From contig JBEEGX010000011.1 in NCBI GenBank assembly GCA_041167105.1, positions 1-41,545 of the forward strand: a DNA stretch of 41,545 nucleotides. Direction: 5' to 3'. The stretch comes from Verrucomicrobiota bacterium (GTDB taxonomy: Bacteria > Verrucomicrobiota > Verrucomicrobiia > Chthoniobacterales > UBA10450). The notes beneath the pieces are model-generated. The model made no database searches and was not told the origin of the DNA. It saw nothing but the letters and a program-made list of their open reading frames with translations. Positions 1 through 41,367 of this stretch are shown piece by piece. The position numbers and the translations under genes were made by a program. Position 1 is the stretch's first letter. Every line of letters begins with the position of its first letter.

Positions 1-1047
1 AAGTTCGTGAAGAATTCCGGGCAGGCGCGAAATGTTCGATGGCATTTTGAAGTCGCGCGATGGCAATGCGTGAACGGCGGCGAGAAAAATCTTCCACGCC
101 GCGATTACGCAAATCCCCGGAACGAACGACAAGATCGACAACGTACGTTTGCGACGCGTCCAGAGAACCGCGGCCGCAGCGACGGTGAGAACGAACCACA
201 ACACGGCGCCTTCGCGTTTCATCCACGGAAGCGTCGCGCCGAGCACGAGGAAAAGTGCGAGCGAATCCCGCGAGTCGTCGCGTACAAATCTGAGCAGGTA
301 AAAAATTGTGGCGAGAAAAACCGCGGCCAGCGGGACGTCCGCGTAACCGACAGAAATTCCGCCGGGCGCGTTATGAATCGCAGGAACAAGCGGAAATAAA
401 ACGACAAGCGCCCAAGCGATCGCGCGATTGCCGCTGAGTTGCCCGGCCGCGAGGAGAAAGATCGACATCGCGGCGGCATACCAAATCGGGAAGATGAGCT
501 TGATCCAAAATTGATCTGCTTCGCCGAACCAGATGTAGAACCACGTTTCGGTCAGAGGCAGGAGCAATGGATATTCCGGGTGACTGAACCAGCGCGATGT
601 GTCGCTGAAGTACGACGATGGCAACGCGCCACCGTTGAGAAAGGCGAAACGCGCTTTCATTTCCCACACGGTCAATCCATCCCAGCCGAGCGTGTGTTGG
701 ATCGACAAGTACAAGATCGACATCAACTCCACGGCGAAGATCGCGATGAAAACTTTGTCGATTCGGCTGAGTAACAGCGAAGGAAGGTTTGGAAAATTTC
801 GCCAACGTCGCACGCCGACTGCGCCAAGCGTGGCACAGATGGCCGCGACGAAAATCTGTAGCGCGATACCGCGAACGAAAAAGCCGCAACACCAAAGGGC
901 GAGCGAAACGACGGCGGTGCCGAACAGCCATGCGAGCGCAAAATGTTCGATCCTGGTCAGGCGATTACGAACGAGGAGCGTTGTCATGCCGAATCCGGCC
1001 GCAAGGATTGTCGCGAAAGCGGCGATGAAGCCGACGAATGTAATCAT
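1..1047 (-). CDS. Polytopic integral membrane protein, partial (N-terminal ~349 aa; the C-terminus lies beyond the left window edge)
   Basis: Absent from the ORF track because no stop lies inside the window. The reverse frame (plus-strand triplets at 1,4,7...) has no TTA/CTA/TCA from 1 to 1047. Hand translation begins MITFVGFIAAFATILAAGFGMTTLLVRNRLTRIEHFALAWLFGTAVVSLALWCCGFFVRG and continues with many hydrophobic spans. The ATG at 1047 overlaps the TGA of the upstream ORF (ATGA). No family recognised; context suggests an EPS-related membrane protein. Confidence 0.6.
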   Translation of the reverse strand, partial: MITFVGFIAAFATILAAGFGMTTLLVRNRLTRIEHFALAWLFGTAVVSLALWCCGFFVRGIALQIFVAAICATLGAVGVRRWRNFPNLPSLLLSRIDKVFIAIFAVELMSILYLSIQHTLGWDGLTVWEMKARFAFLNGGALPSSYFSDTSRWFSHPEYPLLLPLTETWFYIWFGEADQFWIKLIFPIWYAAAMSIFLLAAGQLSGNRAIAWALVVLFPLVPAIHNAPGGISVGYADVPLAAVFLATIFYLLRFVRDDSRDSLALFLVLGATLPWMKREGAVLWFVLTVAAAAVLWTRRKRTLSILSFVPGICVIAAWKIFLAAVHALPSRDFKMPSNISRLPGILHEL

Positions 1048-1490
1048 TGTGAGCTGGCGGGATTGCGGAGCGTGAGATGCGGGCCGAGCGATTGCGCCTC
1101 GGGCACAGCGCGATCAAGCCCGCACATGTAGACCGCGAGATTCATCTGCGGAATCGGCTCGTTAGGCCGGATCTCGACCTTGTCGATCTTGCGCGGCCAC
1201 GTGAGATAACAGAGCGCCGAGTAAACGAAGTCGCAGCGCGCGTCGTCTTTTGGTGAAACGAAAACAGTGCGTTGTGTCGAGGCAATTCGCGCGGTCGCGT
1301 TGATGAGGTTCGCGCTCGGCTGGCGAATTTCCAGCAGCGGCGCGAGCAAGCTGTCGATTGACGCGGTGGGCGACGGCGAGACGGCGTGACCGCTGCGCAA
1401 GTTCTGCCAAAGTTTCGGCGCTGCGAGCACGGCGAAGATCGACAAGAGCAGCGCCCACGCGACGAAATAAATTTGGCGGAGCGTCTTCAA
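1044..1490 (-). CDS. Hypothetical protein with N-terminal signal/anchor helix
   Basis: 148-aa ORF (TTG start) beginning MKTLRQIYFVAWALLLSIFAVLAAPKL, followed by a soluble domain. Its start overlaps the upstream stop (TTGA, 1487-1490) and its stop overlaps the next start (ATGA, 1044-1047), so it sits inside the operon. No family recognised. Confidence 0.5.
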   Translation of the reverse strand: MKTLRQIYFVAWALLLSIFAVLAAPKLWQNLRSGHAVSPSPTASIDSLLAPLLEIRQPSANLINATARIASTQRTVFVSPKDDARCDFVYSALCYLTWPRKIDKVEIRPNEPIPQMNLAVYMCGLDRAVPEAQSLGPHLTLRNPASSQ

Positions 1491-2929: not shown

Positions 2930-5276
2930 TATGATAGGCGAGCCAGGCGTTCCAGGCGCGTTCCCAATTTTCTTTCGCGGCCCAGGATTGCGCTTCGAGA
3001 TAATGAAAATACTTCGGCGCATTCGGCCGGTCGCTGAAATGGCGCGCGGTGACGAGCGCGTCATCGGTGCGGCCAAGCTGGCGTTGCGCAAGATACAGCG
3101 CGTAGCCGACGGCGTAATTATCAGGGTTCGTCAGGTAACGTTGCTGGAGCTGGTCGAGCGGCGCGTTGTTGCTTTCGCGCGGCAGGGCGACGACGTCGCC
3201 AAAACGTTGCGCGAGATCGTAGGCGGCGTGGAAATCATTTTTGCTCGCGTAAAATTTTGCCATGCCGAACCAGGCATAGCTGAGCCAATCGCGGTGATTG
3301 TCGATCTTGCGCGCGAGCTCATCGAGATTTCCGCGCTCGGACCAAAGCGAAAAGAGGGCGAGCTTCTGCGGCTCGGTGAATTTTTCCAGGCTCGGATCTT
3401 TGCTCAACAATTTCCCGAGCGTGGCATCGAAGTCTTTTCCGTTCACGCGGCTGAGATACGCGAGGACGAGCTCGGGCTCGCCGAGTCCAATCTCCTCGAG
3501 CGTGCGCGCGAGCGGCGGACTGTGCATCAAGGCGCCGCTCAACATGTTCGCGTAAACATCGCCACGCGAAGCGCCGGCGCGACGCAGCGCCTCGTGCCAG
3601 GCGGTGGCCGCGAGTGTGGGCTCAATCGGCAACCACACGTTACCTTCGAGGAACGGCAATTCGTATCCATTCGGCTCGAGGAAACGGGCGCGGCGAAAAT
3701 CATCGAGCGCATCGCTCCATTTTTTCGCGCCGGCTTCGGCCATGGCGCGCGAGAAATAAAGTTGCCAATCGAGCGGCGACCACGGAATGGCTGCGCTCGT
3801 TAGGCGAATTGCTTCGCTGAAATCCTGGCCGCGCGTTTCCATTTGCGCGAGCTCTTTGGCGCTGGCAACGCCAACTGCTCCCGGCAACAACATTTTCGAG
3901 CGCGTCGCGATGACCCACGACATTCCGCTAATGACGAGAACGAGGCCGACGATTCGAAACAGAACTGAAACGCTCATGCTCGGCCGCAAATTGAGCGGCC
4001 GATGCAGCGACAGGCCGAGCAGAAACAAACCGGCAAAGGCAGTGCCGACGCGGTGCGCGCTCACGTCGATGAGTCCGTGCGCGGCAAAGATCAAAGCCGC
4101 GATGAGGGCGGCGAGACGAAAACGTTGATTGGTCCCCTCCTGCAACGGCAGCACTCGCCTGACAAGAAGCGCGGCGCCGATCACGATGAGTAGAACCGCC
4201 GGCCAGCCCATTTCCGACCAAAGCCAGAGCCAGTCGCTTTCCGGATGCAAGGCGCGCGTGTTGCCGACCGATTCCGTGCGAAACAAGGCGAAGACGAAAT
4301 CGAAATTACCGAGGCCGATGCCGCACCACGGCGAAGCACGGATGAGATCGAAGGTGTCGTGAAAGATCTTCCAGCGAAAATCGGCGGACAAGCCGCTGCC
4401 AGGCAATCCGCCAAAGTTGAAGCGCTCGAGGGTTTCGCCGCCTAACAACAGCACCGCCGTCATGAGCACAAGCAGGAATGAAACTGCGAGCGCGATGCGT
4501 TCGCTGGTGCGTTGACGCACGAGCACGGCGAAAATCCAAATGACGCTGCCACCGACGAGAATGCCGACGCCCGCGCGCGACCAGTTGAGGAGAATGGCTA
4601 CCACTAAGATCGACAATGCGATTATCCAGACGAACCAGCGTTTCCGGCCGCGACGAATATCGTCCTGACCACAAGCGAGCAGAACAATCGAGGTGATGCC
4701 TAACAAATCCGCGGTTTGGTTTTTGTTCGGGAACGGACCGAAGCCGCGCGCGTTCGTCCAAAGCGCGAAGGACCCGTGGCCGAGGTAGAGGAGAATGGAG
4801 ATGACGGCGAGAACAACCACGCCGACGACGAAGAGCCGCAATTGCGACCGCACCGCGCGAAGGTCGATCTCGTGCGTGGCCACGAGGTACAACCAGCTCA
4901 ACGCGCCAATCAGACTAACGAACGCACCGGCGGTGATCCACGGCTGCGGCGAAACCGTTCCCGGAAGCGCGATGTTGAAATCGTCCACTACTGCGGCGCG
5001 CCACTGCGGCCACGAAAACCAATGCGCCGGCAGGAACCCCATGAGCGCAACCGCCAGGAACAAAACGAAAACGATATTCGTCGTTAGGCCGAGCGAGAGC
5101 CGCGGCGGCCGCGCCAGCAGATACAAGCCCAGCAGTGTGAGCACGACGCCTTCGGCCCATTTCGTCGTCGCGCCGCCAAGAAAGCACGCCAGCACCGGCA
5201 AAAGCGGCAGAAAAATATTCGCGAGCCCGCTGGGGGCGGAACGGCGCTCGGGCTGTGCGGTGGGCTCGGACATCAC
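2910..5276 (-). CDS. O-antigen ligase/polymerase-like (Wzy_C-type) membrane protein fused to a C-terminal TPR-like helical domain
   Basis: 788-aa ORF. The N-terminal ~470 aa are polytopic, with a large loop (RTESVGNTRALHPESDWLWLWSEMGWP) typical of the O-antigen ligase/Wzy_C family. The C-terminal ~300 aa are soluble and helical-repeat-like (AYDLAQRFGD.., YALYLAQRQLGRTDDALV). Confidence 0.7.
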   Translation of the reverse strand: MMSEPTAQPERRSAPSGLANIFLPLLPVLACFLGGATTKWAEGVVLTLLGLYLLARPPRLSLGLTTNIVFVLFLAVALMGFLPAHWFSWPQWRAAVVDDFNIALPGTVSPQPWITAGAFVSLIGALSWLYLVATHEIDLRAVRSQLRLFVVGVVVLAVISILLYLGHGSFALWTNARGFGPFPNKNQTADLLGITSIVLLACGQDDIRRGRKRWFVWIIALSILVVAILLNWSRAGVGILVGGSVIWIFAVLVRQRTSERIALAVSFLLVLMTAVLLLGGETLERFNFGGLPGSGLSADFRWKIFHDTFDLIRASPWCGIGLGNFDFVFALFRTESVGNTRALHPESDWLWLWSEMGWPAVLLIVIGAALLVRRVLPLQEGTNQRFRLAALIAALIFAAHGLIDVSAHRVGTAFAGLFLLGLSLHRPLNLRPSMSVSVLFRIVGLVLVISGMSWVIATRSKMLLPGAVGVASAKELAQMETRGQDFSEAIRLTSAAIPWSPLDWQLYFSRAMAEAGAKKWSDALDDFRRARFLEPNGYELPFLEGNVWLPIEPTLAATAWHEALRRAGASRGDVYANMLSGALMHSPPLARTLEEIGLGEPELVLAYLSRVNGKDFDATLGKLLSKDPSLEKFTEPQKLALFSLWSERGNLDELARKIDNHRDWLSYAWFGMAKFYASKNDFHAAYDLAQRFGDVVALPRESNNAPLDQLQQRYLTNPDNYAVGYALYLAQRQLGRTDDALVTARHFSDRPNAPKYFHYLEAQSWAAKENWERAWNAWLAYHNAATKR

Positions 5277-5416: not shown

Positions 5417-6820
5417 ATGTTGACCCAACGCAAGGAAGGTCTCTACAGCGTCTTCCTCATCTGCCAAATCCTTATCGTGGCCGGACTGTTCTGGTTCGGC
5501 GTCTGGGTCTTGGTCACGTTTTATTCGCCGAGCGCCGATCTCACCTGGCGCCGCTACAGCATTTATTGCGGCATGCTCGTGCTCGGCATCGTGCTCGAAT
5601 CGCTCACCCGCGAAGGCGCGAAACATTATTTCGTCCAGAACGAACTCGTGCGGCAACACCGACTCAGCCTCCGGCAAACCATCGCCAGCGTCGGCATGCT
5701 GGTGCTTTATCTGGTCGCGACGAAAGACGCGTTTGTTTCGCGCGTGTTCTTTTTCAACTTCGTGCCGTGGTTGTATGTCGCGCTCCTCTTCTCGCATTAC
5801 TATCTGCCGCCGTTGCTCGCGCGCGGAATTTTTCGTCGTGAAGAAAAGACGCTGCTCATCGGCTCACCCCAGAAGGCCGAGCAACTTCAGAAATGGCTGC
5901 GGCGAAAATCGGAATTCGGTTTGCGCGCCGTCGGTTTAATTTGTGACGACAAGATCGACAACGTACCTCCGGGAGTTCCTTCGGTGCTTGGCCGCTCCGA
6001 AGATCTCGAGCGCGTTATTCGCGAGAACGGCATCGTCCAGGTCATCCTGCTCGAGTTTCCGCTCTTCACCGAAATCAATTGGCAGCTCATTCGCACCTGC
6101 GACGCGCTTGGCGTTCGCCTCCTCATCGTGAGCGATCTCGAGGAAAAACTTCGCCATTCCGTCACGCATTTCGAGGATGACGGCCACCGCTTCATCGGTT
6201 TGCGCGAGGAGCCGCTCGAAAATCCGGTCAACCGTTTCCTCAAACGCGCGATCGATTTCGCCATCGCCGTTCCCATCATGTTGATCGTGTTCCCGGTCGC
6301 CATGATCCTCGTCTGGCTCGCGCAACGATTGCAATCGCCCGGCCCGCTCTTTCACATGCAAACACGTGCCGGCATGCAAAATCGACAATTCAAAATCTAC
6401 AAGTTCCGCACCATGCACACGGGTAACGGCGAGATCGCGCGCCAGGCTTCGAGCAACGACGAGCGCGTGTATTTCGTTGGCAAATGGTTTCGCAAGCTCA
6501 GCATCGATGAGATTCCACAATTTTGGAACGTGCTTCGCGGCGACATGAGCATCGTCGGCCCGCGTCCGCACCTGGTCGAGCACAACAACCAGTTCGCGCA
6601 ATTACTCGCGAATTATCACGTGCGCACATTCGTTAAGCCCGGCATCACCGGCCTGGCGCAAGTGCGCGGTTATCGCGGCGAAGCGCACAACAGCTCGGAC
6701 ATTGAAAAACGCGTCGCCTGCGACATCGAGTATCTCGAGAACTGGAACTTGTCGCTCGAGTTCGCCATCATCGTGCGCACGTTCGCGCAGGTTATTTTTC
6801 CGCCGCGGACGGCCTATTGA
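5417..6820 (+). CDS. Exopolysaccharide polyprenyl (undecaprenyl)-phosphate glycosylphosphotransferase, WbaP/EpsB-type initiating enzyme
   Basis: 467 aa. N-terminal TM helices precede the C-terminal bacterial sugar transferase domain, with hallmark strings FKIYKFRTM, DEIPQFWNVLRGDMSIVGPRP and KPGITGLAQV. Confidence 0.9.
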   Translation: MLTQRKEGLYSVFLICQILIVAGLFWFGVWVLVTFYSPSADLTWRRYSIYCGMLVLGIVLESLTREGAKHYFVQNELVRQHRLSLRQTIASVGMLVLYLVATKDAFVSRVFFFNFVPWLYVALLFSHYYLPPLLARGIFRREEKTLLIGSPQKAEQLQKWLRRKSEFGLRAVGLICDDKIDNVPPGVPSVLGRSEDLERVIRENGIVQVILLEFPLFTEINWQLIRTCDALGVRLLIVSDLEEKLRHSVTHFEDDGHRFIGLREEPLENPVNRFLKRAIDFAIAVPIMLIVFPVAMILVWLAQRLQSPGPLFHMQTRAGMQNRQFKIYKFRTMHTGNGEIARQASSNDERVYFVGKWFRKLSIDEIPQFWNVLRGDMSIVGPRPHLVEHNNQFAQLLANYHVRTFVKPGITGLAQVRGYRGEAHNSSDIEKRVACDIEYLENWNLSLEFAIIVRTFAQVIFPPRTAY

Positions 6821-23053: not shown

Positions 23054-24366
23054 TGTTCGGCCGCGAAACGGTGTAATCCGCGCCAACTCATCGCGATGTT
23101 GAGCAAAAGATTTGGGACGGCGGAAAGAAGATTGAAGTTGAGCACGCCGGCGACGCTGGAGAAATCGGTGAACGGAATGAGTGCGAGCTGCGTGCCGAGG
23201 GTGAGCGGAATGTAAAGCCACGCGCCGTGGATCCACGCCTTCGACGCGTTCAACGCCCAAAAGGTGCCGGTGAGCGCGGCTATGACGGAGCCGGCGACCA
23301 TGAGGAACAACTCGCGATGGAGATGCGCGTATTTGTGGCCGAGCACGAACAGGAATTGGTTCGGCAGAAGCACCGCGCCGGCGACGACGGCGAGACTAAA
23401 CGCCGCGACGCCGCCGACGATGGCGAGGAAAAGCCAGCGAAGTTTGCGTGCGCTTTGGCAACGCGCGAATTCGGGAACGAAGACGTTGGTGAGGAGATTG
23501 CTAAGGACGGCGAAGATCATGGCGAGACGGCCGAGCGCGCCGACTTCGGCGACGGAGCTGACTTGGCGAGCGAAGAAGCTGATGAGGAAAATTGTGATTT
23601 GCCCCTGGAAACAATAGAAGACGGCGTTGGCGGCGAGATGTTTCGTCAGCCGCATTATTTCTTGTCGATCTTGCAGATTTTCCTGCGCGCCAAGATCGAC
23701 AACTGCATTCACGTAACGACGCAGCATGAGGTACTGCAGAAGAAAAACCGCGCTGGCCACGGCAACGGCGATGCCGGCGTTGAGAATCCAGAAGGCAAAC
23801 GCGACGAAGAGCGCGAGCCTAACGACGGCGCCGGTGAAATCGATGATTTGAATACGAGTGACGTCGGCGCGAAGTCGCGGGACGACACTGAGAACGCCGA
23901 CGGAAAATTGGAGAAGTAATCCGGCGACGACGATTACGGCGAGAATTGCGATGTAAAGAAGAGGCGCGCCGTTTTTCCAAAGCATCGAGCACATGATGGG
24001 CGTGACGATGAGGATGGCAGCGGCGCCAAGTTTTCGACGCACGTGCAGACCGGTAACAATGAGTTCGCCGAAACGATGTCGATCTTGCCAGACGCGGCCG
24101 CCGATGGAGACGAGACCGACGGAAATGCCGATGTCGGCGAGGAGATTGATCGTCGCCTGCATCGAATTCGCGATGGTGAAATAGGCGTACTCGGGTTGCG
24201 ACATCCAGCGGATGAGCAAAATGCCGCTGAGAAATCCGATGACCTGGACGACGGCCTGGACGGCGGCGAAGTTACCGATGATGCGGGCACGATAGAGCGC
24301 GCGCCTAACGAGAGGCGTCGAGGTCTCGCTAAGACCGGGAAGTGAGATCGGACCGAAGAAGCTCAT
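23050..24366 (-). CDS. wzx: Polysaccharide/oligosaccharide flippase (Wzx-like, MOP superfamily)
   Basis: 438 aa with about 12 hydrophobic segments. The N-terminal region RARIIGNFAAVQAVVQVIGFLSGILLIRWMSQPEYAYFTIANSM is typical of polysaccharide biosynthesis (Wzx) proteins, and it sits in an EPS context. Confidence 0.75.
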   Translation of the reverse strand: MSFFGPISLPGLSETSTPLVRRALYRARIIGNFAAVQAVVQVIGFLSGILLIRWMSQPEYAYFTIANSMQATINLLADIGISVGLVSIGGRVWQDRHRFGELIVTGLHVRRKLGAAAILIVTPIMCSMLWKNGAPLLYIAILAVIVVAGLLLQFSVGVLSVVPRLRADVTRIQIIDFTGAVVRLALFVAFAFWILNAGIAVAVASAVFLLQYLMLRRYVNAVVDLGAQENLQDRQEIMRLTKHLAANAVFYCFQGQITIFLISFFARQVSSVAEVGALGRLAMIFAVLSNLLTNVFVPEFARCQSARKLRWLFLAIVGGVAAFSLAVVAGAVLLPNQFLFVLGHKYAHLHRELFLMVAGSVIAALTGTFWALNASKAWIHGAWLYIPLTLGTQLALIPFTDFSSVAGVLNFNLLSAVPNLLLNIAMSWRGLHRFAAEQ

Positions 24367-24471
24367 GGCGCACGGTGCGAGCGATAATCCGATGCCGAAG
24401 TGCCAAGAGCAATCGCGCGAATACAGCGCGAAATGAAGATGTCGATCTTAGCGCAGCCCGATGGGCGCAGC

Positions 24472-28952: not shown

Positions 28953-30164
28953 ATGATTCGCTTTTCTCCTAAAGCTTTCATCTTCGCGCTTGTCTCCGGC
29001 ATTGCCACCATGTCGATCTTCGCCGGATCAATGCCGAATGGTGACGGCCTCGCCAACCAGGCGAAAAATCTCGCGCGCATGAACTGCGGAGCTCAAATCG
29101 AATGCATCACTCCGGATGGCCGCGTTGTGCGTGTCACTCCCGCCGCGCCCGAGAACAGCGAAGCCGCCGCACTCATCATGGACGACGACACCGTGAGCTG
29201 CTCATTGGCGGAAGGCGAAACCAATTTCGTCATCGCATTGCCAAATCCGGCGCTGCTCGATCGCTTCACCTTTTTAAATGAAAACGCTGCCGCGCACGGC
29301 GAGCTCAGCATCGCCGTATCGAATTATCGTTTGCCGGCCAAGAGTGCGAAGTGGACGCCGGTCGAAGGCACCGTCGCTTTCACGAACAAGCGCACGTTTG
29401 ATCTCTCATTACTTGGCGTCGAAGCGAAATTCGTTCGCCTCACCTTCCGCGTGCAAAAAGAGGGACGCATCGCCGCGCTCGGTCTCTACGGCCAGCAATC
29501 GCTCGATCAATTCGGCGCCCGCCAGGGTCACGTCATGCAAGTGTCCAACGCCATCGACGGCAATCGCCCGGCGGATCGCGTCAATTTCAACTTCGCCAAC
29601 ACCTATGCCCGCGCGCATGTTCGCTTCGTTAGCTCCGGCGTCGTCGTCGACTCCGGCAAAATGATCGATGACGACCCGATCACCGCCTACACCTTTTCGT
29701 TCTCAGACCCGCATCCGACGGTTGTGGTCGAGCTTTCCGCTGTGCAACGACTTCATCGCGTCAGCGCCATTTATGATATGCACGCAGGTCGGCTTGATGT
29801 TTATGCATTGAACAAACTCACCGGCGATGTTGAAAATTTCGAGGGACTCAAGCCGATCGCTTCCGTGGTCGATCACGCCGGCGAAGGAAAAGCTTCGGTC
29901 GATTTCAATCCGCAAGGCGCTCGCTATATCGCGCTGCGCTGGATGCCGGAGAACTCTCGCGTGCAACATGAAAGTTTCCGCATCGCCGAGATCAATGCTT
30001 TCGGAAATGTGCCGCTTGCATTGCTCGACATGAATATGCCGCCGCAGCTTTTCGCCAACAGCAACGGATTTTCCACCGGACGTCCGGGTGACGGTGCGCC
30101 CGATTTGAGCAACACGCTCGGAACGCTCGCGGTTCCTCCGACGCTCCCGCCTGTAAGTCCATAA
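28953..30164 (+). CDS. Secreted protein with two discoidin/F5-8 type C-like (galactose-binding-like) domains
   Basis: 403 aa with signal peptide MIRFSPKAFIFALVSGIATMSIFAGS. Two segments end with the pattern typical of discoidin domains (FVRLTFRVQKEGRIAALGLYG and ARYIALRWMPENSRVQHESFRIAEINAFG). Moderate confidence in the family. Confidence 0.55.
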   Translation: MIRFSPKAFIFALVSGIATMSIFAGSMPNGDGLANQAKNLARMNCGAQIECITPDGRVVRVTPAAPENSEAAALIMDDDTVSCSLAEGETNFVIALPNPALLDRFTFLNENAAAHGELSIAVSNYRLPAKSAKWTPVEGTVAFTNKRTFDLSLLGVEAKFVRLTFRVQKEGRIAALGLYGQQSLDQFGARQGHVMQVSNAIDGNRPADRVNFNFANTYARAHVRFVSSGVVVDSGKMIDDDPITAYTFSFSDPHPTVVVELSAVQRLHRVSAIYDMHAGRLDVYALNKLTGDVENFEGLKPIASVVDHAGEGKASVDFNPQGARYIALRWMPENSRVQHESFRIAEINAFGNVPLALLDMNMPPQLFANSNGFSTGRPGDGAPDLSNTLGTLAVPPTLPPVSP

Positions 30165-30193: not shown

Positions 30194-30223
30194 GTTGTCG
30201 ATCTTAGTAGTTGTCGATCTTAG
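30194..30223 (+). repeat. Tandem direct pair of the dispersed motif: GTTGTCGATCTTAG-TA-GTTGTCGATCTTAG (16-bp period)
   Basis: Read directly from sequence. Two identical 14-mers at 30194-30207 and 30210-30223, in the spacer upstream of the hybrid kinase gene. Confidence 0.95.
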
Positions 30224-30415: not shown

Positions 30416-32074
30416 ATGGGATCTACTACCGCTAATGACTCGTTAGGCATTGGCGCGACTTCCCAAGCGCGCGACCAAAAGCAGACACCACCACATGAAC
30501 ACTCCATCTACCAAATCAAAGACGGCGCCGACGCTCAAAACCATGCGGCGCAAAGTCAGGATTATCCTTCACTCCTTGCCCGGGCTACGAATGATGCAGT
30601 TCGGGATCTGGATTTAACGACCAACCGACTCGTCTGGCGGCAAGGCCTGCACGATCTCCTCGGTTACGATGCAAGATCGACATCGACCGACCTCGCGTTC
30701 TGGACTGAGCGCGTTCACCCCGAAGATCGTCTCCGCGTTGTCGGCTCGATTTGCGCCGCGCTCGATGGAACCGCCGAAAATTGGACCGGCGAATATCGAT
30801 TCCAACACGCCGATGGTTCCTACCTCCATCTGCTCGAACGCGCCGCCATTGTGCGCGACGAACAACGACGCGCCGTGCGCCTGCTCGGTTCGCTCATGGA
30901 TATCACCGAGCACAAACAACTGCACGACCAGCTGTGTCGCTCGCAAAAAATGGAAGCCTTCGGCCAGCTCGCCGGCGGCGCCGCCCACGACTTCAGTAAT
31001 TATCTCACGACCATTCTCGGCTACAGCGATCTCCTACTCGCTGAAACCGCGTCGAAAAATACCATCACCAATCACGTCACCGAAATCCGCAATGCGGCGG
31101 TGCGCGCGGCGTATCTCACCGCGCAATTGCTCGCCTTCAGTCGCCAGCAAAATCTTGAAGCGCGCGTCCTGGAAATAAATTCCTTCATTCACGGACTGGA
31201 CGGGTCCGTTCTGCGTTTGTTAGGCGAAAACGTCACCGTCACTTGCGATTTGCACCACGATAAAAACGGCGCGTTCATCAAAATCGATCCGGGTCAGCTC
31301 ACTCAAGTCGTCTTGAATCTTGCGCTCAATGCGCGCGATGCCATGCCCGAAGGCGGCGCGCTTGTCATCAAAACTTCTGTGGCCGATTTCACGCAAGATC
31401 GACAATTGGAAGATCGACATCTGCGCGCCAGCGGCGATCCGATTTCCGCCGGCGAATACGTTGTCATCACCATCCGCGATAACGGCACGGGCATGACCGA
31501 CGCAGTGAAAGCGCATTTGTTTCAGCCGTTCTTCACTACCAAACCCGAAGGCGGTCTTGGTCTCTCCGCCTCCTACGGAATCGTCAGGCAATGCGGCGGC
31601 CGGATTGTGGTCGAGAGCGATTTGGGTAAAGGCACGCAGGTCGATGTTTATCTGCCCCGCGTCGGTCCGCCGGCCTATCGCCGCATCAACAACAAGAAAA
31701 TGCCCACCGGCACCGAGACCATTCTCGTGCTCGAAGACGATGTCAGCGTTCGCCACATTTCCGTCCGTGTTCTGCGTTCGTTAGGCTATGACGTCATCGA
31801 AGCGGGCAACGGCGATGACGCGCAACGCATGATCACGCAGCGCTCGAATGACGATGTCGATCTTGTCTTGAGCGACATTGTCATGCCGAACATGAGCGGC
31901 CGGCACTTTGCCGAGTGGCTGCGAAAGACAAGCCCGCGCATTAAAATCGTTCTCGTCTCCGGTTATCTCGACGAATCGGACGAAGCCAACGCCGAGCCCG
32001 GAATGTTTTTCCTGCCGAAACCGTTCGATCCGGAACAACTCGCGCAAAGCATTCGTCACGCGCTCGACACGTAG
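30416..32074 (+). CDS. Hybrid sensor histidine kinase / response regulator (PAS - HisKA - HATPase_c - REC)
   Basis: PAS-like region (WRQGLHDLLGYD...EDRLRVVGSICAALDGTAENWTGEYRFQHADGSY). H-box FGQLAGGAAHDFSNYLTTILGYSDLL. ATPase N/G boxes (LNLALNARDAMPEGG, RDNGTGM, GGLGLS). C-terminal receiver domain ILVLEDDVSVRHI...DLVLSDIVMPNMSG...VSGY. The ORF track starts at TTG 30389; I use ATG 30416. Confidence 0.85.
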   Translation: MGSTTANDSLGIGATSQARDQKQTPPHEHSIYQIKDGADAQNHAAQSQDYPSLLARATNDAVRDLDLTTNRLVWRQGLHDLLGYDARSTSTDLAFWTERVHPEDRLRVVGSICAALDGTAENWTGEYRFQHADGSYLHLLERAAIVRDEQRRAVRLLGSLMDITEHKQLHDQLCRSQKMEAFGQLAGGAAHDFSNYLTTILGYSDLLLAETASKNTITNHVTEIRNAAVRAAYLTAQLLAFSRQQNLEARVLEINSFIHGLDGSVLRLLGENVTVTCDLHHDKNGAFIKIDPGQLTQVVLNLALNARDAMPEGGALVIKTSVADFTQDRQLEDRHLRASGDPISAGEYVVITIRDNGTGMTDAVKAHLFQPFFTTKPEGGLGLSASYGIVRQCGGRIVVESDLGKGTQVDVYLPRVGPPAYRRINNKKMPTGTETILVLEDDVSVRHISVRVLRSLGYDVIEAGNGDDAQRMITQRSNDDVDLVLSDIVMPNMSGRHFAEWLRKTSPRIKIVLVSGYLDESDEANAEPGMFFLPKPFDPEQLAQSIRHALDT

Positions 32075-32102
32075 TTGTCGATCTTGTTCGTTGTCGATCT
32101 TG
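32074..32102 (+). repeat. Tandem direct pair of the dispersed motif: GTTGTCGATCTTG-TTC-GTTGTCGATCTTG (16-bp period)
   Basis: Read directly from sequence. Two identical 13-mers at 32074-32086 and 32090-32102. The first base is the G of the kinase TAG stop, and the pair ends 18 nt before the ilvA start. Confidence 0.95.
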
Positions 32103-32119: not shown

Positions 32120-33331
32120 GTGATTTCGTTTAAAGACATCGAAGCCGCGCGCGAACGCATCAAGGGCGCGGTCTGTTACTCGCCTTGCCCGCCGTCCGTC
32201 GCGCTAAGCGAGCTCACCGGCATGCAGATTTTCTGCAAGCAGGAGCAACTTCAGCATACCGGCAGTTTTAAGGAGCGCGGCGCGCGCAACGCGCTCATGC
32301 AATTGCCTAACGAGCAGCAAAAGCGGGGCGTTATCGCCGCTTCCGCCGGAAATCACGCGCAGGCCCTCGCATATCAGGGCGGCTTGTTAGGCATTCAAGC
32401 GACCGTGGTCATGCCGAAGTTCGCGCCGTTGATGAAGATCAACAATTGCCAGAAGCTCGGCGCCGATGTGGTGTTGCACGGAAATGATTTCGGCGAAGCG
32501 CGTGCGCGTGCGCATGAGATCGGCCAAGAGAAAGGTCTCGCCTACATCAATGGCTACGATGATCCCGCCATCATCGCGGGACAGGGTTCGTTAGGCATCG
32601 AGATTCTCGAACAAGTTCCCGATGTCGATCTTATCGTGGTCCCGGTGGGCGGCGCGGGATTGATCGGCGGAGTCGCGCTCGCGGTGAAAACATTGCGACC
32701 GCAAACAAAAGTCATCGCGGTCGAAGCCGAGAACGTCGCCAGTTTCGCCGCCGCGCTCGAAGCGCACCAACCGACGCGCATCGCCGCCCAACCGACGCTC
32801 GCTGACGGTCTCGCCATTCCGCAGGTCGGCGCAAACGGTTTCGAGCTCGCACGCGAACATGTCGATCAAACGGTCATCGTGACTGAAGAACAAATCGCCA
32901 TCTCGATCTTGCGCATTGTCGAGTTGGAGAAAGCTGTCGTGGAAGGCGCAGCCGCGACATCGCTGGCCGCCTGTTTGTCGGGACAACTGAATGAATTCGC
33001 CGGCCAGCGCGCAGTGTTGCTCTTCACCGGCGGCAATATCGACCCGAATGTTTTGAGTCGCGTGATCGAGCGCGGACTCGTCGCCGACGGCCGACTTTGT
33101 CGATTCACTGCCGTCATTAGCGATCGACCCGGCGGTCTCGGGGACCTTGCCACGCAAATCGCCGCGACCGGCGCGAGCATCAAACAAGTCGTGCACGATC
33201 GCGCCTTCGGCAGCGCGGATGTTTCACACGTGCACGTGCGTTGCACGGTCGAGACGCGCAATCACGAACATCTCGCGCAATTGCGCGCGCATCTGAAGAG
33301 CCACGGCGTCGAGACGTACGATTCCAAATAG
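32120..33331 (+). CDS. ilvA: Threonine ammonia-lyase (threonine dehydratase), short form with one C-terminal ACT-like domain
   Basis: 403 aa. PLP-lysine motif HTGSFKERGARNAL, glycine loop VVPVGGAGLIGGVA, and a C-terminal regulatory domain (CRFTAVISDRPGGLGDLATQIA). GTG start. Confidence 0.9.
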   Translation: MISFKDIEAARERIKGAVCYSPCPPSVALSELTGMQIFCKQEQLQHTGSFKERGARNALMQLPNEQQKRGVIAASAGNHAQALAYQGGLLGIQATVVMPKFAPLMKINNCQKLGADVVLHGNDFGEARARAHEIGQEKGLAYINGYDDPAIIAGQGSLGIEILEQVPDVDLIVVPVGGAGLIGGVALAVKTLRPQTKVIAVEAENVASFAAALEAHQPTRIAAQPTLADGLAIPQVGANGFELAREHVDQTVIVTEEQIAISILRIVELEKAVVEGAAATSLAACLSGQLNEFAGQRAVLLFTGGNIDPNVLSRVIERGLVADGRLCRFTAVISDRPGGLGDLATQIAATGASIKQVVHDRAFGSADVSHVHVRCTVETRNHEHLAQLRAHLKSHGVETYDSK

Positions 33332-33351: not shown

Positions 33352-33365
33352 CATACCGTGACGCA

Positions 33366-36230
33366 ATGCATGCGCGACAGGAATACAAGATCGACCTCGA
33401 CTCCTTTGCGCGGCGTCATATCGGCCCTAACGAATCTGAAGTTGGCGCAATGTTGCGCGAACTCGATTTCGACAATCTCGATGCACTGATCGACGCGACC
33501 GTTCCGAAAAATATCCGCTTAGATCGACAACTCGATTTGCCGGAAGCGAAATCGGAAGCACAGGCGCTGTCGGAGCTGCGCACGATTTCGAAGAAGAACA
33601 AAGTCGCGAAGAATTTTATCGGCGCTGGTTACTCCGATTCGATCACGCCGCCGGTGATTCAGCGAAACATTCTCGAGAACCCCGGTTGGTATACTGCCTA
33701 CACACCGTATCAGGCCGAGCTCGCGCAAGGCCGGCTCGAAGCGCTGCTCAATTTCCAAACCATGATCACCGATCTCACAGCGATGGAGATCGCGAATGCG
33801 TCGATGCTCGATGAAGCCACTTCCGCAGCGGAGGCGATGGCGCTCTGTCATGCGGCGGTGCCGGGCCGGAAAACATTTTTGGTTTCGGACGATTGCCATC
33901 CGCAAACGATCGAGGTCGTGACTACGCGCGCGAAGCCGCTCGGCATTCAGATTAAGATCGACCATCACGTTAACTTCGATTTTGACGAGGATGTTTTTGG
34001 CGCGCTCCTGCAATTTCCCGCTACTGATGGTGAGGTTCACGATTACTCCGCGCTCGTTAGGCCGGCGCACGAGGCCGGCGCGCTCGTGGTGGTGGCGGCC
34101 GATATTCTCGCGCTCACTCTCTTCAAACCGCCGGGCGAGTTCGATGTCGATGTTGTCGTCGGCAGCACGCAGCGCTTCGGGGTTCCGTTAGGCTACGGCG
34201 GGCCACACGCGGGATTTTTTGCCACGCGCGACAAATACAAACGTCACATGCCCGGCCGGCTCGTCGGCGTTTCGCATGATGCTGAAGGTCGCCCGGGCTA
34301 TCGACTCGCATTGCAAACGCGCGAGCAACATATCCGTCGCGACAAAGCCACCAGTAATATTTGCACCGCGCAAGTTTTGCTCGCGGTCATCGCCTCGATG
34401 TATGCGGTCTATCACGGACCGCGCGGCTTGCGCGCTATCGCCGAACGCCTGGATGAAATGACGCGGCGCCTTTGCGTTTCTCTCGAGGACGTTGGCTTCG
34501 GTGTCGCGCACGAATTTTTCTTCGACACGCTTCATGTCGCGCTCGGCCATCAGGGAAACGCGGAGCACTTTCTTGCGCGAGCCGCGTCTGTCGGGATGAA
34601 TTTGCGCAAACTCGGCGAGAACACCGTCGGCATCTCGATCGACGAAACGACGACCGAAGCAGACCTCGCGCACCTGTGCGAAGTGTTTGAGGCGAAGATC
34701 GACAGTTCGTCCGATTACGAATCTTTCCGCGATCCGCCGTCGCTCCTGCGCACTTCCGATTTCCTAACGCACCCGATCTTCAATACGCATCACACCGAGA
34801 CCGAAATGCTGCGTTACATCAAGCGGCTCGAGTCGCGCGATTTGTCGCTCTGTCATTCCATGATTCCGCTCGGCTCATGCACGATGAAACTGAACGCGAC
34901 CGCGGAAATGTTTCCGCTTTCGTGGCCGGAATTTTCGAAGCTACATCCGTTTGCGCCTAACGAACAGGCGACCGGTTACATCGACATGTGCAAGCAGCTG
35001 GAAGATTGGCTCGCGGAAATCACCGGCTTCGCTGCCGTATCGTTGCAGCCGAATGCGGGATCGCAAGGTGAATACGCGGGCTTGCTCGCGATCCGCGAAT
35101 ATCACAATTCGCGCGGTGAACCGCATCGCAACGTTTGTCTCATTCCGAATTCGGCGCACGGAACGAATCCGGCCAGCGCGGTCATGGCCGGTCTGCGCGT
35201 CGTCGCGGTCGCGACGTTGAAAGATGGAGATGTCGATCTTGCCGATCTTCGCGCGAAAGCCGACGCGCACGCGCGCGATCTCGCCGCCATCATGATCACA
35301 TATCCGAGCACGCACGGCGTGTTCGAGCCGACCATTCGCGAAATCTGCGAAATCGTGCACGCGCACGGCGGCCAGGTTTATCTCGACGGCGCGAACATGA
35401 ACGCACAGGTCGGACTCTGCCGTCCCGGCGATTACGGCGCCGATGTTTGCCATTTGAATTTGCACAAGACGTTTTGCATTCCGCACGGCGGCGGCGGACC
35501 CGGCGTCGGACCGATCGGTGTCGCGCCACATCTCGTTCCGTTTTTGCCGGCGGCGGCGACGTTGAATGACGATGTCGATCTTACCAACCGCGTCGGGCCA
35601 GTCGCGCAAGCGCCCTATGGCAGCGCGAGCATTCTCACGATCTCGTGGATGTATATCCGCATGATGGGACCGATCGGCCTAACGGATGCGAGCAAGATCG
35701 CGATTCTGAATGCGAACTACATCGCGAAACGACTCGACCCGCATTTTCCGGTCTTGTTCAAAGGCAAACGCGGCCTCGTCGCGCATGAGTGCATTGTCGA
35801 TCTTCGCCAATTTAAAAGTATCGGCATCGAAGTCGAAGACGTGGCGAAACGTTTGATGGATTACGGATTTCACGCGCCGACAGTTTCGTTTCCGGTTGCC
35901 GGCACGATGATGATCGAGCCGACCGAGAGCGAATCGAAAGATGAGCTCGACCGTTTTTGCGATGCGATGATTTCCATTCGAAAGGAAATCGAAGCCGTCG
36001 CGAACGGCACGCAAGATCGACATAACAATTTGCTCAAAAACGCGCCGCACACCACGCGACAGATCGCCGCGGAAAAATGGGAACATCCCTACACGCGCGA
36101 GCAAGCGGCGTTTCCCGCGCCGTGGACACGCGAGCACAAATTCTGGCCGAGCGTCGCGCGCATCGACAACGTCTACGGCGATCGGAATTTATTCTGTTCC
36201 TGTCCGCCGGTCGAAGGCTTCGAAGACTGA
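33366..36230 (+). CDS. gcvP: Glycine dehydrogenase (decarboxylating), glycine cleavage system P protein, single-chain form
   Basis: 954 aa, collinear with single-chain GcvP. Conserved strings include [115 protein letters not shown] and [13 protein letters not shown]. Confidence 0.95.
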
Positions 36231-36871: not shown

Positions 36872-36915
36872 CTATCAAACGCTACGCTCTAGCGCGGTGC
36901 GATAGATTGCAAAGA

Positions 36916-36938
36916 TTTCGCGGCGAGACGCCGCGAAA
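36916..36938 (-). terminator. Putative intrinsic terminator hairpin after the FAD-oxidoreductase gene
   Basis: Perfect 10-bp GC-rich stem TTTCGCGGCG-AGA-CGCCGCGAAA, 20 nt downstream of the stop at 36958. On the minus strand it is followed by TCTTTG, a weak U-tract. Confidence 0.4.
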
Positions 36939-36957
36939 CGCGCCGGGGACAGCCGCG

Positions 36958-38487: not shown

Positions 38488-38491
38488 GTTA

Positions 38492-39790
38492 TTAAGCGAC
38501 CCAGTTTGCCCGGGTAAAATTCCACACGTACCAACCCTGTACGATTAACCCCGCGGCGCACGCCAGCACCACAGTCGCCGTCGCCAATGCGCGCACTGGC
38601 AGCGGAGGGAGGCGAAGTTGACGCAGAAAGTGCAGGAACGCCAGCACGATTAAAGTATGAGAACAAAACTGATAGCGCAGCATGCTCTCCATCTCGACGC
38701 AGGCCACGCCGCTGATGGAGATGTAATATATAATAGCTCCGGCAGCGTAGAGACCGATGCGTTGGCGCCAATTCGTCTCGCTCCGCAATGCCGCGACGAT
38801 TTCGACAATCGCGATGATGATGAACGCGACCATCGTCAGCGAAGTCGCAAGCTGACTGGCTTCGACCGGATTATTCAGCGCGGGTACGAGCCAGCGATAA
38901 CTTGAAGGACGAAAGATCGCCAGGTAATCGGGCACGATTCCCCAACCGGCCGATTGCGTGAGCATGTACATGTCCCAATGCCCCCAGCGTATGAGGCAAT
39001 AAGTGAAGAACGCGCCGGCGCCGAATGTCGCTAAGATCGACATCGTCATTACCGACAAATGCTGACGCAGCGGAAACAATCGCTTTTGCAAAATCGATTG
39101 CATGACTGGAATGCCCGCGCACGGAATACCGACGATGCGCGTGCCGGACATAATGATGCCGTGCAGAACAGCGAACACTTTCGCGTAGCGCGATTCCGAC
39201 GTGCTCCAATAAAGAAAGCCGAGCAGCCCCATCAGGAACATCGATTCGGAATAACCCGCGATAAGAAAGAACGCGGCCGGATGGGACAAGATCGACAATG
39301 CGCCTAACGAGCGCAGTGTCGGCGAAAGGTTCCAGCGTTCGCAAAAGAGAAAGAAATAACTCCAGAAACCGAACGCGGCGATTTGCGCGGTAATGAGCAA
39401 CCCGCTGTCGGTTTCAATTCGAAAAACTTTATGGAGCAGCGCCGCGGTCGCGGGATAAGCGGGGAAGAATGCGACGTTGGAAACTTCCATCACCTTGTGA
39501 TTGATCGGCGGAACGATGGTTTCGTAGCCGCGATCGATGATGTTCATGAACCAGTAGCTGTCGTGCTGGTTCAAGGTGGAATAGCGCCAGGAGAGCGGAC
39601 CTTCCGGCGCGAGGAGCAGCACGGCGATGACGATTTGCGCGATGGTGACGACGAACGCCCAGCTCAACGGAGTGATTGTCGATCTTGCCGCGGTCATTCC
39701 AGGCGAAGGCAGAGCCGCCGAGGAGATACGAAAGCTTTCGCCGAAGCAAGAACTTGTCGGTTGATCGAGTGTCGCCGTGTTCGCTTGCAT
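38492..39790 (-). CDS. Polytopic membrane protein, GT-C/PIG-V-like mannosyltransferase candidate
   Basis: 432 aa with about 9-11 hydrophobic segments. The N-terminal loop DSYWFMNIIDRGYE...FFPAYPA resembles the DUF/PIG-V-type GT-C family. Assignment is tentative. Confidence 0.5.
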   Translation of the reverse strand: MQANTATLDQPTSSCFGESFRISSAALPSPGMTAARSTITPLSWAFVVTIAQIVIAVLLLAPEGPLSWRYSTLNQHDSYWFMNIIDRGYETIVPPINHKVMEVSNVAFFPAYPATAALLHKVFRIETDSGLLITAQIAAFGFWSYFFLFCERWNLSPTLRSLGALSILSHPAAFFLIAGYSESMFLMGLLGFLYWSTSESRYAKVFAVLHGIIMSGTRIVGIPCAGIPVMQSILQKRLFPLRQHLSVMTMSILATFGAGAFFTYCLIRWGHWDMYMLTQSAGWGIVPDYLAIFRPSSYRWLVPALNNPVEASQLATSLTMVAFIIIAIVEIVAALRSETNWRQRIGLYAAGAIIYYISISGVACVEMESMLRYQFCSHTLIVLAFLHFLRQLRLPPLPVRALATATVVLACAAGLIVQGWYVWNFTRANWVA

Positions 39791-39841
39791 GTTTCGCTGG
39801 CTGTAGTGCGAGACTTGGACGGGAATGCGAAACCTTTATTC

Positions 39842-39902
39842 GGTAGCGCCGGCGCGCTGCGCCGGCACGAGTTTGGAGACGCCGCAGCGCGGCGTCGCTA
39901 CC
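39842..39902 (-). other. Compound GC-rich stem-loop element downstream of glgA
   Basis: The outer stem GGTAGC (39842-39847) / GCTACC (39897-39902) encloses two perfect 8-bp hairpins. These are GCCGGCGC-GCT-GCGCCGGC (39848-39866) and GACGCCGC-AGC-GCGGCGTC (39878-39896). No clear U-tract. Confidence 0.5.
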
Positions 39903-39918
39903 AGTAAAAGATCGACAA

Positions 39919-41367
39919 TCAGGCCGCGGCTTCTTCGGCCGGCGCGAGCGCGCGATACGCTTGCTCGTAACGCGCGGCCGATGCGTCCCAGGAAAAATTT
40001 CGCGCCATGGCGCGTTCACAGAGTGTGTGCCAGAGCGTGCGATCGTTAAAGACTTCGCGCGCGCGTTTGATCGCGTCCCAGAACGCTTCGGTCGAGTAAT
40101 CGAAAAACAAAAACCCGTAGCCGCGATCAAGTGTCGGGTCGTAGTCCTCGATGATTTCTTGAATGCCCCCCGCGGCGCGCGCGACCGGGAGCGCGGCATA
40201 CTTGAGCGAATACATCGCCATCAAACCTGACGGCTCGAAGCGCGACGGGATGAGGCTGATGTCGATGGCGGCTTCGATGAGATGCGCCAGTTGTTCGTCG
40301 TAATGGCGTTGATAAGAAAACTTCGTTGGGAATTTTTTCGCGGCGACCGTGAGCGCGGTTTCAAAGGCCGGATCGCCCTCGCCTATTATAATAAGGCGCA
40401 CGTCGTCGCTGAGGAGGCGGTCGAGCAGCGGCACGAGAATGTCGAAGCCTTTTTCTTTCACGACGCGCGTGACCATGCCGAAGACCGGGCCGTGCGGCGC
40501 GGGCGCGAGCTGGAGATGGTTGAGGAGCGCGTCGCGGCAAAGTTGTTTACCCCAGAGCGAGTCGGCGTCGTAGAGCGCGGGCAGGTACTGATCAGTCGTG
40601 GGATTCCACCGGGTATAATCGGCGCCATGCAAGATCGACATAAACTTGTGCGCGTTCTCGCGCAGGACGCCGTCGAGACCAGCGCCGCCTTCCGGGGTCA
40701 TGATCTCATGTTTGTAGTGCTCGCTCACGGTAGTGAGTTTGTCGGCGAAGAGGATTCCGCCTTTGAGGAAATTGAGCCGCCCGAAAAATTCGATGCCGTG
40801 GAGCGAGAAGAAGCGTTGATGCAGATTCGTTAGGTCGAAATCGAGTCCCCAGAAACTTCCCTGCTCTTCGACGTGGTGAATCGTGAGCACGGTCGAGAAG
40901 GGCAGATGATATGCCCTAACGAACGCCGGCACGAGCGCCGCCGCCCAATCGTGGCAATGCAAAATCTGCACGGAGGGCGTGAGCCGGCGCGCGAGCTCGA
41001 GCGCGGCCTTCGTGAAAAAAATGAAGCGCGCCGCGTTGTCTTCGTACGCTTCGCCGTGCTCGCCGTAGATTCCTTGTCGATCAAAGAACTCGTCGCAGCG
41101 AATCAGGAATAACTGCACGCCGGTCGCGGTGCGACTTTCGAGATACTCGGCCACATAAGTTTTCTCGCCGACGCGCACATCGACCGTGATACCGGTGTCT
41201 TCCTCTTTGAATTCCGTATTCTCGCGAATCTCGCGATAGAACGGCAGCGCGATGCTGACTTCATGGCCGCGGTCGCGCAACTGCTGCGGCAACGCGTTCA
41301 TCACATCGATGAGCGCGCCGGCGCGTTGCAACGGCGGCCCTTCGGCGCTGATCATTAAGATGCGCAT
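39919..41367 (-). CDS. glgA: Glycogen synthase (ADP-glucose type, GT5)
   Basis: N-terminus MRILMISAEGPPLQRAGALIDVMNALPQQLRDRGHEV, matching the KxGGL-region position. C-terminal segment SLIPSRFEPSGLMAMYSLKYAALPVARAAGGIQEII is typical of GlgA. The ORF track extends to TTG 41403; the ATG at 41367 aligns better with GlgA N-termini. Confidence 0.9.
   Translation of the reverse strand: MRILMISAEGPPLQRAGALIDVMNALPQQLRDRGHEVSIALPFYREIRENTEFKEEDTGITVDVRVGEKTYVAEYLESRTATGVQLFLIRCDEFFDRQGIYGEHGEAYEDNAARFIFFTKAALELARRLTPSVQILHCHDWAAALVPAFVRAYHLPFSTVLTIHHVEEQGSFWGLDFDLTNLHQRFFSLHGIEFFGRLNFLKGGILFADKLTTVSEHYKHEIMTPEGGAGLDGVLRENAHKFMSILHGADYTRWNPTTDQYLPALYDADSLWGKQLCRDALLNHLQLAPAPHGPVFGMVTRVVKEKGFDILVPLLDRLLSDDVRLIIIGEGDPAFETALTVAAKKFPTKFSYQRHYDEQLAHLIEAAIDISLIPSRFEPSGLMAMYSLKYAALPVARAAGGIQEIIEDYDPTLDRGYGFLFFDYSTEAFWDAIKRAREVFNDRTLWHTLCERAMARNFSWDASAARYEQAYRALAPAEEAAA

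Follow-up and report, generated by a model that had tools for sequence, protein, structure and literature searches.

A short DNA word recurs through five reading frames of a soil Chthoniobacterales chromosome segment

Why should one 10-nucleotide word be written dozens of times into the genes of a single bacterial chromosome segment, and does the explanation lie in the proteins or in the DNA? We address this question for a 41,545-nt stretch (the window) of a Verrucomicrobiota bacterium (GenBank assembly GCA_041167105.1, contig JBEEGX010000011.1), in which the word AAGATCGACA, called word A here, occurs in 70 exact copies, 38 on the plus strand and 32 on the minus strand. Dinucleotide-preserving shuffles of the window contained a mean of 0.19 copies and a maximum of 1, which corresponds to an enrichment of about 370-fold; the observed density is about one copy per 600 bases. 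An earlier reading made from the sequence only had proposed that the DNA word, and not a peptide, is the target of the responsible force. We reach the same conclusion: the cause of word A abundance is at the DNA level and not at the peptide level, and word A is neither a protein motif nor a mobile element nor an RNA signal but a genome tag specific to its lineage.

Reading frames and protein context of word A

Genes were called independently (longest open reading frames [ORFs] with start trimming) and checked against Pfam and against JGI gene annotations for an 18-kb contig of identical sequence. Sixty-four of the 70 word A copies (91%) lie in coding sequence, and 30 of the 32 genes carry at least one. 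In one orientation the word encodes K-I-D (11 copies), (Q/E)-D-R-(H/Q) (11 copies), or R-S-T (5 copies); in the other it encodes V-D-L (23 copies) or S-I-(L/F) (14 copies) and never C-R-S. The six intergenic copies start at 24440, 30196, 30212, 32076, 32092, and 39908. Both this frame table and the intergenic sites are identical to those of the sequence-only reading, in which two quoted coordinates were slightly off (10724 is 10714, and 22304 is 22305).

Protein composition and codon usage account for very little of this abundance. Shuffling synonymous codons while keeping every protein intact left 3.7 coding copies and shuffling codon order left 0.16, compared with 64 observed, a 17-fold excess over the synonymous-shuffle level. 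Nearly every V-D-L in the window is spelled GTCGATCTT (23 of 24), as nearly every K-I-D is spelled AAGATCGAC (15 of 17), and both tripeptides are inflated relative to composition (17 K-I-D versus 1.3 expected, or 13-fold; 24 V-D-L versus 5.8 expected, or 4-fold). The sequence-only reading had held that a frame distribution matching codon usage would undermine it. Under a codon model with the word codons masked, all five used frames were enriched, by 227-fold to about 39,000-fold. The R-S-T frame even imposes a rare codon, AGA, which makes up 0.07% of codons elsewhere; 5 of the 14 AGA codons in the window fall within word A.

Comparison with orthologues points the same way. Relatives without the word have orthologues covering 25 window sites, which allowed 264 site-by-relative comparisons. 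The same four-residue peptide was present in 6% of them, and at 18 of the 25 sites it was found in no relative, which argues against the peptide-level cause that shared tripeptides would have indicated. Residue identity was 39% at word-encoded codons and 70% across the same alignments. Typical orthologue states were conservative changes (DIDL to DVDL, ILDL to IVDL, and ADRQ to QDRH), variable loops, and a length-variable linker (at 31395 and 31410), and orthologous word A sites aligned without gaps, with 1 to 6 mismatches. The host proteins had been described as unrelated, which stands only in part because seven are GT4-type paralogues, but the copies in these seven occupy different alignment columns, and in the three columns that do coincide the frames differ (QDRH versus DVDL, IVDL versus QDRQ, and SIL versus VDL).

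Two further remarks about individual frames fared differently. The suggestion that S-I-(L/F) copies sit in hydrophobic settings is borne out by their flanks, which are more hydrophobic than those of other copies (mean of +0.56 versus about −0.2; Mann-Whitney P = 0.001). The absence of C-R-S is real in the window, but it is weak evidence because the prior for this frame is the second lowest of all (0.0002 copies expected) and because about 10 of 359 copies in other contigs do use it (longest-ORF heuristic, contigs among the matches listed).

What the data show is a directional process that targets the word as double-stranded DNA, in a sequence-specific manner and irrespective of transcription orientation and replication strand. 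Throughout the chromosome, near-matches become perfect copies by point substitution and are kept, and protein constraints decide where copies survive. A DNA-level drive filtered by protein tolerance accounts for the use of five frames in both orientations, for the placement of copies in variable or conservatively replaceable columns, and for the forced rare codons. We rejected a peptide motif on the basis of the five frames, the 6% peptide sharing with orthologues, and the differing paralogue columns. A repeat of the repetitive extragenic palindrome or miniature inverted-repeat element type was also rejected, given that similarity stops about 2 nt beyond the word, that 64 of the 70 copies are coding, and that orthologous sites are gap-free.

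Anatomy, distribution, and turnover of word A

Word A is longer than the 10-mer that the sequence-only reading described. Among the 70 window copies, position −2 is G in 40 (57%), position −1 is C in 44 (63%), and position +10 is A or T in 68; the corresponding shares among 426 unpaired copies in other contigs are 95% for A or T at +10 and 51% for C at −1. The −1 C and the +10 A/T occur in all frame classes. The full word is thus about 11 to 13 nt long, gcAAGATCGACAw, and non-palindromic; its ATCG center is nearly invariant and its edges are more tolerant. One-off copies are fewer than perfect ones both in the window (70 perfect to 22 one-off, the latter against an expectation of 1.7) and in related contigs totaling 763 kb (640:319), and one-off variants cluster at the edges, the central ATCG being almost never changed. 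No one-base dialects of word A were found in a contig-by-contig search. The tetramer GATC occurs at about twice the composition expectation (7 to 11 per kb) in the window and in L002 to L024, with or without word A, which itself accounts for just 1.7 per kb of window GATC.

Copies are spread over the whole window (131 to 40640, both strands). Those on the plus strand start at 131, 458, 713, 1435, 2103, 2328, 4606, 5951, 8278, 8614, 9794, 10216, 11209, 11565, 12168, 12854, 15340, 16127, 17500, 17961, 18692, 19264, 19691, 20394, 21705, 22781, 23692, 26260, 26713, 30673, 31395, 31410, 34695, 36013, 39033, 39288, 39908, and 40631, and those on the minus strand start at 1181, 1567, 3299, 7259, 7922, 9086, 10714, 11064, 12218, 12949, 15026, 16637, 22305, 22939, 23663, 24077, 24440, 29011, 30196, 30212, 31855, 32076, 32092, 32623, 35231, 35573, 35795, 36814, 36849, 37715, 38149, and 39677. 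Spacing is near-random and slightly even (coefficient of variation [CV] of 0.83 versus 0.98; P = 0.07). Strand bias is absent in the window (38:32), and 23 other loci are homogeneous (chi-square = 21.9, df = 23, P = 0.53).

The window is a segment of bacterial chromosome with 58% GC. Its first 28.7 kb hold a surface-glycan cluster, almost all on one strand, with at least nine glycosyltransferases, a Wzy-type ligase, a PMT-like protein, a Bac_transf initiating transferase, an S-adenosylmethionine-dependent methyltransferase, a Wzc-like kinase, Poly_export, and a porin-like protein. Beyond it lie genes for a hybrid histidine kinase, a PALP enzyme, the glycine dehydrogenase GcvP, a phosphoribosyltransferase, an amine oxidase-like protein, and a starch-synthase-like GT5. 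Word A density is uniform over the glycan cluster and the housekeeping genes, from which we conclude that the cluster was not imported recently. We rejected a phage origin because none of 50,697 phage records matched 25 kb of the window by megablast and because the window, with its glycan cluster and gcvP, is chromosomal. Extension of the contig by exact-protein look-ups recovered just the 18-kb JGI contig and a 1.6-kb Logan contig. By GcvP (72 to 80% identity), the nearest genomes are those of uncultured soil Verrucomicrobia of the Chthoniobacterales, around "Candidatus Udaeobacter."

Three gaps of 15 or 16 bp between the starts of word A copies were found in the window, all between same-strand copies, compared with about 0.23 expected. 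The pair at 30196 to 30221 (minus strand, starts 16 bp apart, period of 16 in Tandem Repeats Finder) is intergenic and begins 32 nt past the stop of the gene at 28953 to 30164; a 69-amino-acid JGI-called ORF without a family, which covers 30212 wholly and 30196 partly, was treated as spurious. The intergenic pair at 32076 to 32101 (minus strand, starts 16 bp apart) begins 2 nt past the stop of the histidine-kinase gene (30416 to 32074), upstream of the gene at 32120 to 33331, and its copy at 32092 is conserved in L003. The third pair, at 31395 to 31419 (plus strand, starts 15 bp apart), is in frame, encodes QDRQLEDRH, and sits in a linker of variable length within the hybrid histidine kinase; relatives show gaps or unrelated residues at this place. 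The spacers of these pairs are unrelated to each other, and two of the three pairs stand shortly after stop codons. In metagenome contigs L082 to L201, among the matches listed, the spacer is 5 nt in 97 pairs and 6 nt in 34; paired copies are about 1.5 helical turns apart. Single intergenic copies lie at 24440 to 24449 (minus strand, between the genes at 23050 to 24366 and 24472 to 26616) and at 39908 to 39917 (plus strand, between the genes at 38492 to 39790 and 39919 to 41403). A promoter scan stayed at shuffle level, and an Rfam search of the window returned no family.

The density of word A in GcvP-syntenic loci declines with distance from the window, from 16.8 copies per 10 kb in the window itself to 10.0 in L002 (AV134), 6.3 in L153, 6.1 in L003 (SMAG_U6258), and 2.6 in L004 (SMAG_U12906). 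Other Chthoniobacterales and Udaeobacter metagenome-assembled genomes (MAGs) have 0 to 2.3 copies per 10 kb, and at most 0.9 apart from the 8.8-kb L011; L005 and L007, which are at a similar distance and have syntenic genes, have none in 23 kb. Word A is therefore a property of a lineage. It recurs in three related MAGs and in independent assemblies from many samples. A metagenome scan for two copies 5 to 6 nt apart (a 26-nt pair pattern) retrieved at least 120 contigs; those listed, mostly of 54 to 58% GC, comprise 807 kb with 602 copies and include pieces of contigs of 0.27 to 1.6 Mb. Long public contigs with the word include JGI Ga0070741_10000001 (1.6 Mb), Ga0070741_10000011 (663 kb), Ga0070741_10000055 (398 kb), and Ga0210405_10000001 (495 kb). 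Frame usage in other contigs (longest-ORF heuristic, matches listed) was VDL 125, KID 91, SIL 50, DRx 44, RST 33, and CRS 10, a ranking that matches the window.

Individual sites are both conserved and turned over. In homologous contig pairs, with ascertained pairs excluded, positions at which word A was perfect in both members made up 24% at 70 to 80% identity (9% for control 10-mers), 50% at 80 to 90% identity (27% for controls), and 7 of 7 at 90 to 97% identity (55% for controls). Some window sites are common to L002 to L004, and others are private. Turnover is apparent inside gcvP at 33954 to 33963 (plus strand), where the window has the one-off copy AAGATCGACC and L002, L003, and L004 have a perfect copy at the orthologous position.

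Some pair-pattern matches have about 50% GC and fall outside the group of 54 to 58% GC. L096 (49% GC) was rejected as a genome-wide carrier of the word, its seven AAGATCGACA copies lying within 370 bp (1073 to 1442), all in frame at multiples of 15 bp, which indicates a protein repeat. L092 and L097 (about 50 to 52% GC) match the pair pattern with two copies each in an identical pair context, L092 coming from a human-gut metagenome. Just three viral contigs had a pair, at low density, and two of these have 67% GC. The top 10-mers of L012, L043, L075, L058, and L076 were rejected as dispersed words, being heptamer tandem repeats, protein-domain repeats, or longer repeats. Heptamer tandem arrays (AATCGAA, CGAACAT, and CGCGGAT), some of them opposed, were observed near gcvP in related Verrucomicrobia and in one Gemmatimonadota MAG (L012 at 4903 to 4926 and 5732 to 5762, L043 at 4373 to 4410, and L075 at 1262 to 1285 and 1385 to 1422).

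A second word of the same kind

A second word, which the sequence-only reading had not described, behaves like the first. Word B, GCCTAACGA, has 25 exact copies in the window (13 on the plus strand and 12 on the minus strand, versus 0.33 expected), all of them coding and extending from 1159 to 39310. Plus-strand copies start at 13333, 14105, 17742, 20345, 22606, 23817, 24303, 24684, 32305, 34955, 37296, 37948, and 39302, and minus-strand copies start at 1159, 3797, 5081, 8974, 12137, 16534, 25073, 30440, 31778, 32588, 34054, and 37745. Word B is asymmetric and lacks GATC, and no fixed distance separates it from word A. It is read as V-R (10 copies), P-N-(D/E) (6 copies), S-L-G (5 copies), or L-T (4 copies), so that all four stop-free frames are used and the two that would read TAA or TAG are not. 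It also imposes the rare codons AGG (10 of the 22 AGG codons lie inside it), TTA, and CTA. At several word B sites relatives keep the peptide (VVRQ, VPNE, or SLG) with a spelling that differs by 1 to 4 bases. When the window was masked for both words, nothing comparable was left.

The distribution of word B differs from that of word A. A monophyletic sister clade (L018, L019, L022, and L023) has 54 word B copies in 63 kb, in four frames, and no word A; the ratio of perfect to one-off word B copies is 54:26 in this clade and 25:30 in the window, where that of word A is 70:22. Our best reading of word B is that it represents a similar specificity, either older than that of word A or parallel to it, which dominates in the sister clade and is more decayed in the window. 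The word B site at 34955 (GcvP, peptide APNE) is also present in the sister clade (L018 at 11584, L019 at 8426, L023 at 11563, and L022), and relatives placed between the window and the clade have APxD with 2 to 4 mismatches; the shared site indicates that the copy was either retained or gained convergently where a near-match stood.

Candidate mechanisms and known systems

What kind of process could write such words? Word A is best read as a genome tag resembling the uptake signal sequences (USS) and DNA uptake sequences (DUS) of other bacteria, and possibly HIP1, that would have accumulated by a directional process. Like USS and DUS, it is a short non-palindromic word present about once per kilobase on both strands and far above chance, and it likewise occurs in several biased frames, encodes poorly conserved residues, and inflates tripeptides. 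Because its anatomy matches that of DNA uptake-enhancing sequences, we infer that uptake-driven accumulation is the most likely mechanism, a view held tentatively and with slightly less than even confidence. We postulate a natural-competence system with a surface DNA receptor that would favor word-bearing fragments over others; once taken up, these would undergo homologous recombination, by which new copies would spread and lost ones would be replaced (molecular drive). The end state, about one copy per 600 bp, would be a genome in which nearly every fragment is tagged as "self." Under the molecular-drive model (Maughan, Wilson, and Redfield), nothing beyond preferential uptake of tagged DNA from the same species, followed by recombination, is reportedly needed for copies to accumulate.

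Several points weigh against uptake. To our knowledge, natural transformation has not been documented in Verrucomicrobia, and we know of no USS or DUS species with two unrelated hyper-abundant words in one genome. No competence genes were found adjoining the word, and a motif-heuristic scan for competence genes, which is a weak test, returned nothing. A tblastn search with Escherichia coli ComEC (YcaI), ComEA (YbaV), HofQ, HofM, a PilT-like protein (YggR), DprA (Smf), and Dam against 1.28 Mb of fragmentary related DNA, also a weak test, found only DprA, on the low-density contig L172. Our literature search returned no link between DUS-type sequences and Verrucomicrobia or Udaeobacter. The inverted-repeat terminator pairs that are typical of USS and DUS, although not strictly defining, are not frequent here: just nine opposite-strand pairs within 120 bp occur in 763 kb, which is below random, and no word-built terminators were found, terminator-like sites being no more numerous in the scan than in shuffles. 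The coding share of 91% also departs from the 35 to 65% of copies that are coding in DUS and USS systems (PMC2817400). Finally, the data also fit any genome-wide process with DNA sequence specificity.

One such process is biased repair or gene conversion, in which a Vsr-like or methylation-coupled endonuclease/repair system would correct one-off copies without any uptake. It would provide the directional DNA-level force, the excess of perfect over one-off copies, and the origin of new copies by point substitution at near-matches, and two words could mean two enzymes. The least tolerant part of word A, the center (A)TCG(A), lies within GATCGA, and methylation could target the GATC and TCGA that the word contains, as it does GATC and CGATCG in HIP1. 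However, known very-short-patch systems act on 4- to 5-bp contexts rather than on asymmetric words of 11 to 13 nt, word B has no GATC, and the 1.28 Mb of related DNA yielded no Dam homologue in the same weak test. HIP1 is tied to orphan methyltransferases (PMC4390886), but conservation of sites above background, also seen here, was in that case read as selection over replenishment (PMC5861425). On balance we consider biased repair unlikely. We judge similarly improbable an array of binding sites used in place, whether by a nucleoid-associated or chromosome-organizing protein or as a "self" tag for a nuclease or defense system, with selection keeping the density high. The uniform density, slightly even spacing (CV of 0.83 versus 0.98; P = 0.07), conserved sites, and strand-independent orientation are all consistent with such an array, same-strand pairs 15 to 16 bp apart suggest two adjacent binding sites, and a role in chromosome structure has been proposed for HIP1 (PMC5861425). 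Yet close syntenic relatives manage without the word (none in 23 kb of L005 and L007), no candidate protein is known, and copies are placed at the positions cheapest for the protein, which argues that number matters and position does not. Nucleoid proteins, as a rule, need no exact sites of 11 to 13 nt at such density.

Two remaining explanations have far less in their favor. E. coli Chi is an 8-mer found about once per 4.5 kb. A polar signal for recombination or segregation, like Chi or KOPS (FtsK-orienting polar sequences), would likewise be an over-represented non-palindromic word, and HIP1 has been called "reminiscent of Chi" (10.1101/2024.09.10.611283), but word A is longer than Chi and about 7-fold denser, and the lack of strand skew in the window (38:32) and across 23 loci (P = 0.53) makes such a signal very improbable. 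Least credible of all is a peptide motif, a by-product of codon usage, a miniature mobile element, or an assembly artifact. Several hosts are indeed paralogous glycosyltransferases, and a linker rich in indels holds one of the tandem pairs; against this stand the five frames in two orientations, the 17-fold excess over synonymous shuffles, the differing paralogue columns, the unique flanks, the gap-free orthologous sites, and the recurrence of the word in independent assemblies from many samples.

If uptake is the correct reading, it would take the phenomenon into a new phylum, given that a 2025 survey lists no families other than Pasteurellaceae and Neisseriaceae with uptake-enhancing sequences; among the literature matches listed for AAGATCGACA, none was about a bacterial genomic word. 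We speculate further, with more doubt than about uptake itself, that this could be the first DNA-uptake-sequence system in Verrucomicrobiota, in soil Chthoniobacterales near "Ca. Udaeobacter," with AAGATCGACA rising, GCCTAACGA older and decaying, and a switch of uptake specificity in progress. Such lineages would then practice self-specific natural transformation, the word would be a sequence handle on transformation in organisms that cannot be grown, and words A and B would offer a natural case of specificity turnover. The word is also a practical marker for binning and tracking the lineage in metagenomes, as the contigs retrieved by the pair pattern alone illustrate. For protein evolution, the K-I-D and V-D-L excesses indicate that a DNA-level drive can strongly reshape proteins, and one-third to one-half of the rare arginine codons of the window exist solely through the words.

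Among known systems, the USS of Haemophilus influenzae has 65% of its copies in genes, where several frames are used very unequally, the residues encoded are poorly conserved, and tripeptides are inflated (PMC2817400), and the likeness to USS and DUS frame bias drawn by the sequence-only reading is correct (Findlay and Redfield, 2009, PMC2817400). Pasteurellaceae USS (Hin-type core AAGTGCGGT and Apl-type ACAAGCGGT) belong to another phylum and are unrelated to word A in sequence. They resemble it as asymmetric words of about 9 to 10 bp with weaker flanks, about one copy per kilobase on both strands, more perfect than one-off copies, and a short critical subcore. Word A differs in being twice as dense, in its 91% coding location, in the absence of inverted pairs and terminators, in the co-residence of a second word, and in tripeptide inflation (17 versus 1.3 for K-I-D and 24 versus 5.8 for V-D-L, compared with about 2-fold for USS). 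The DUS of Neisseriaceae (AT-GCCGTCTGAA) is also lineage-specific, shared by related species at graded density, and frame-biased in its coding copies, whereas word A is nearly all coding and forms same-strand pairs 15 to 16 bp apart. DUS dialects, in which related clades use different words, resemble the situation of words A and B (PMC3630211; 10.1101/2025.10.24.684340), but dialects differ by 1 to 2 bases and words A and B are unrelated.

Cyanobacterial HIP1 (GCGATCGC) is hyper-abundant (15- to 300-fold), lies in ORFs in all frames, and contains GATC, as word A does. It is conserved above background without a peptide or RNA role (PMC5861425) and has been linked to natural transformation experimentally (10.1101/2024.09.10.611283) and by phyletic correlation (10.64898/2026.06.24.733823). 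HIP1 is a palindromic octamer tied to the methyltransferases DmtA and DmtC, whereas word A is an asymmetric 11- to 13-mer, and neither word A nor word B is the HIP1 palindrome or a variant of it; HIP1 also shows a periodicity of 10 to 90 kb, compared with a window of 41 kb here. Chi and KOPS are likewise over-represented asymmetric words that act on DNA independently of frame, but they are sparser and skewed with the direction of replication, which word A is not. By its anatomy, word A belongs with hyper-abundant genome words of the uptake type, its functional membership being putative, and it is set apart by the highest density, a near-total coding location, same-strand pairs 15 to 16 bp apart, and a co-resident second word.

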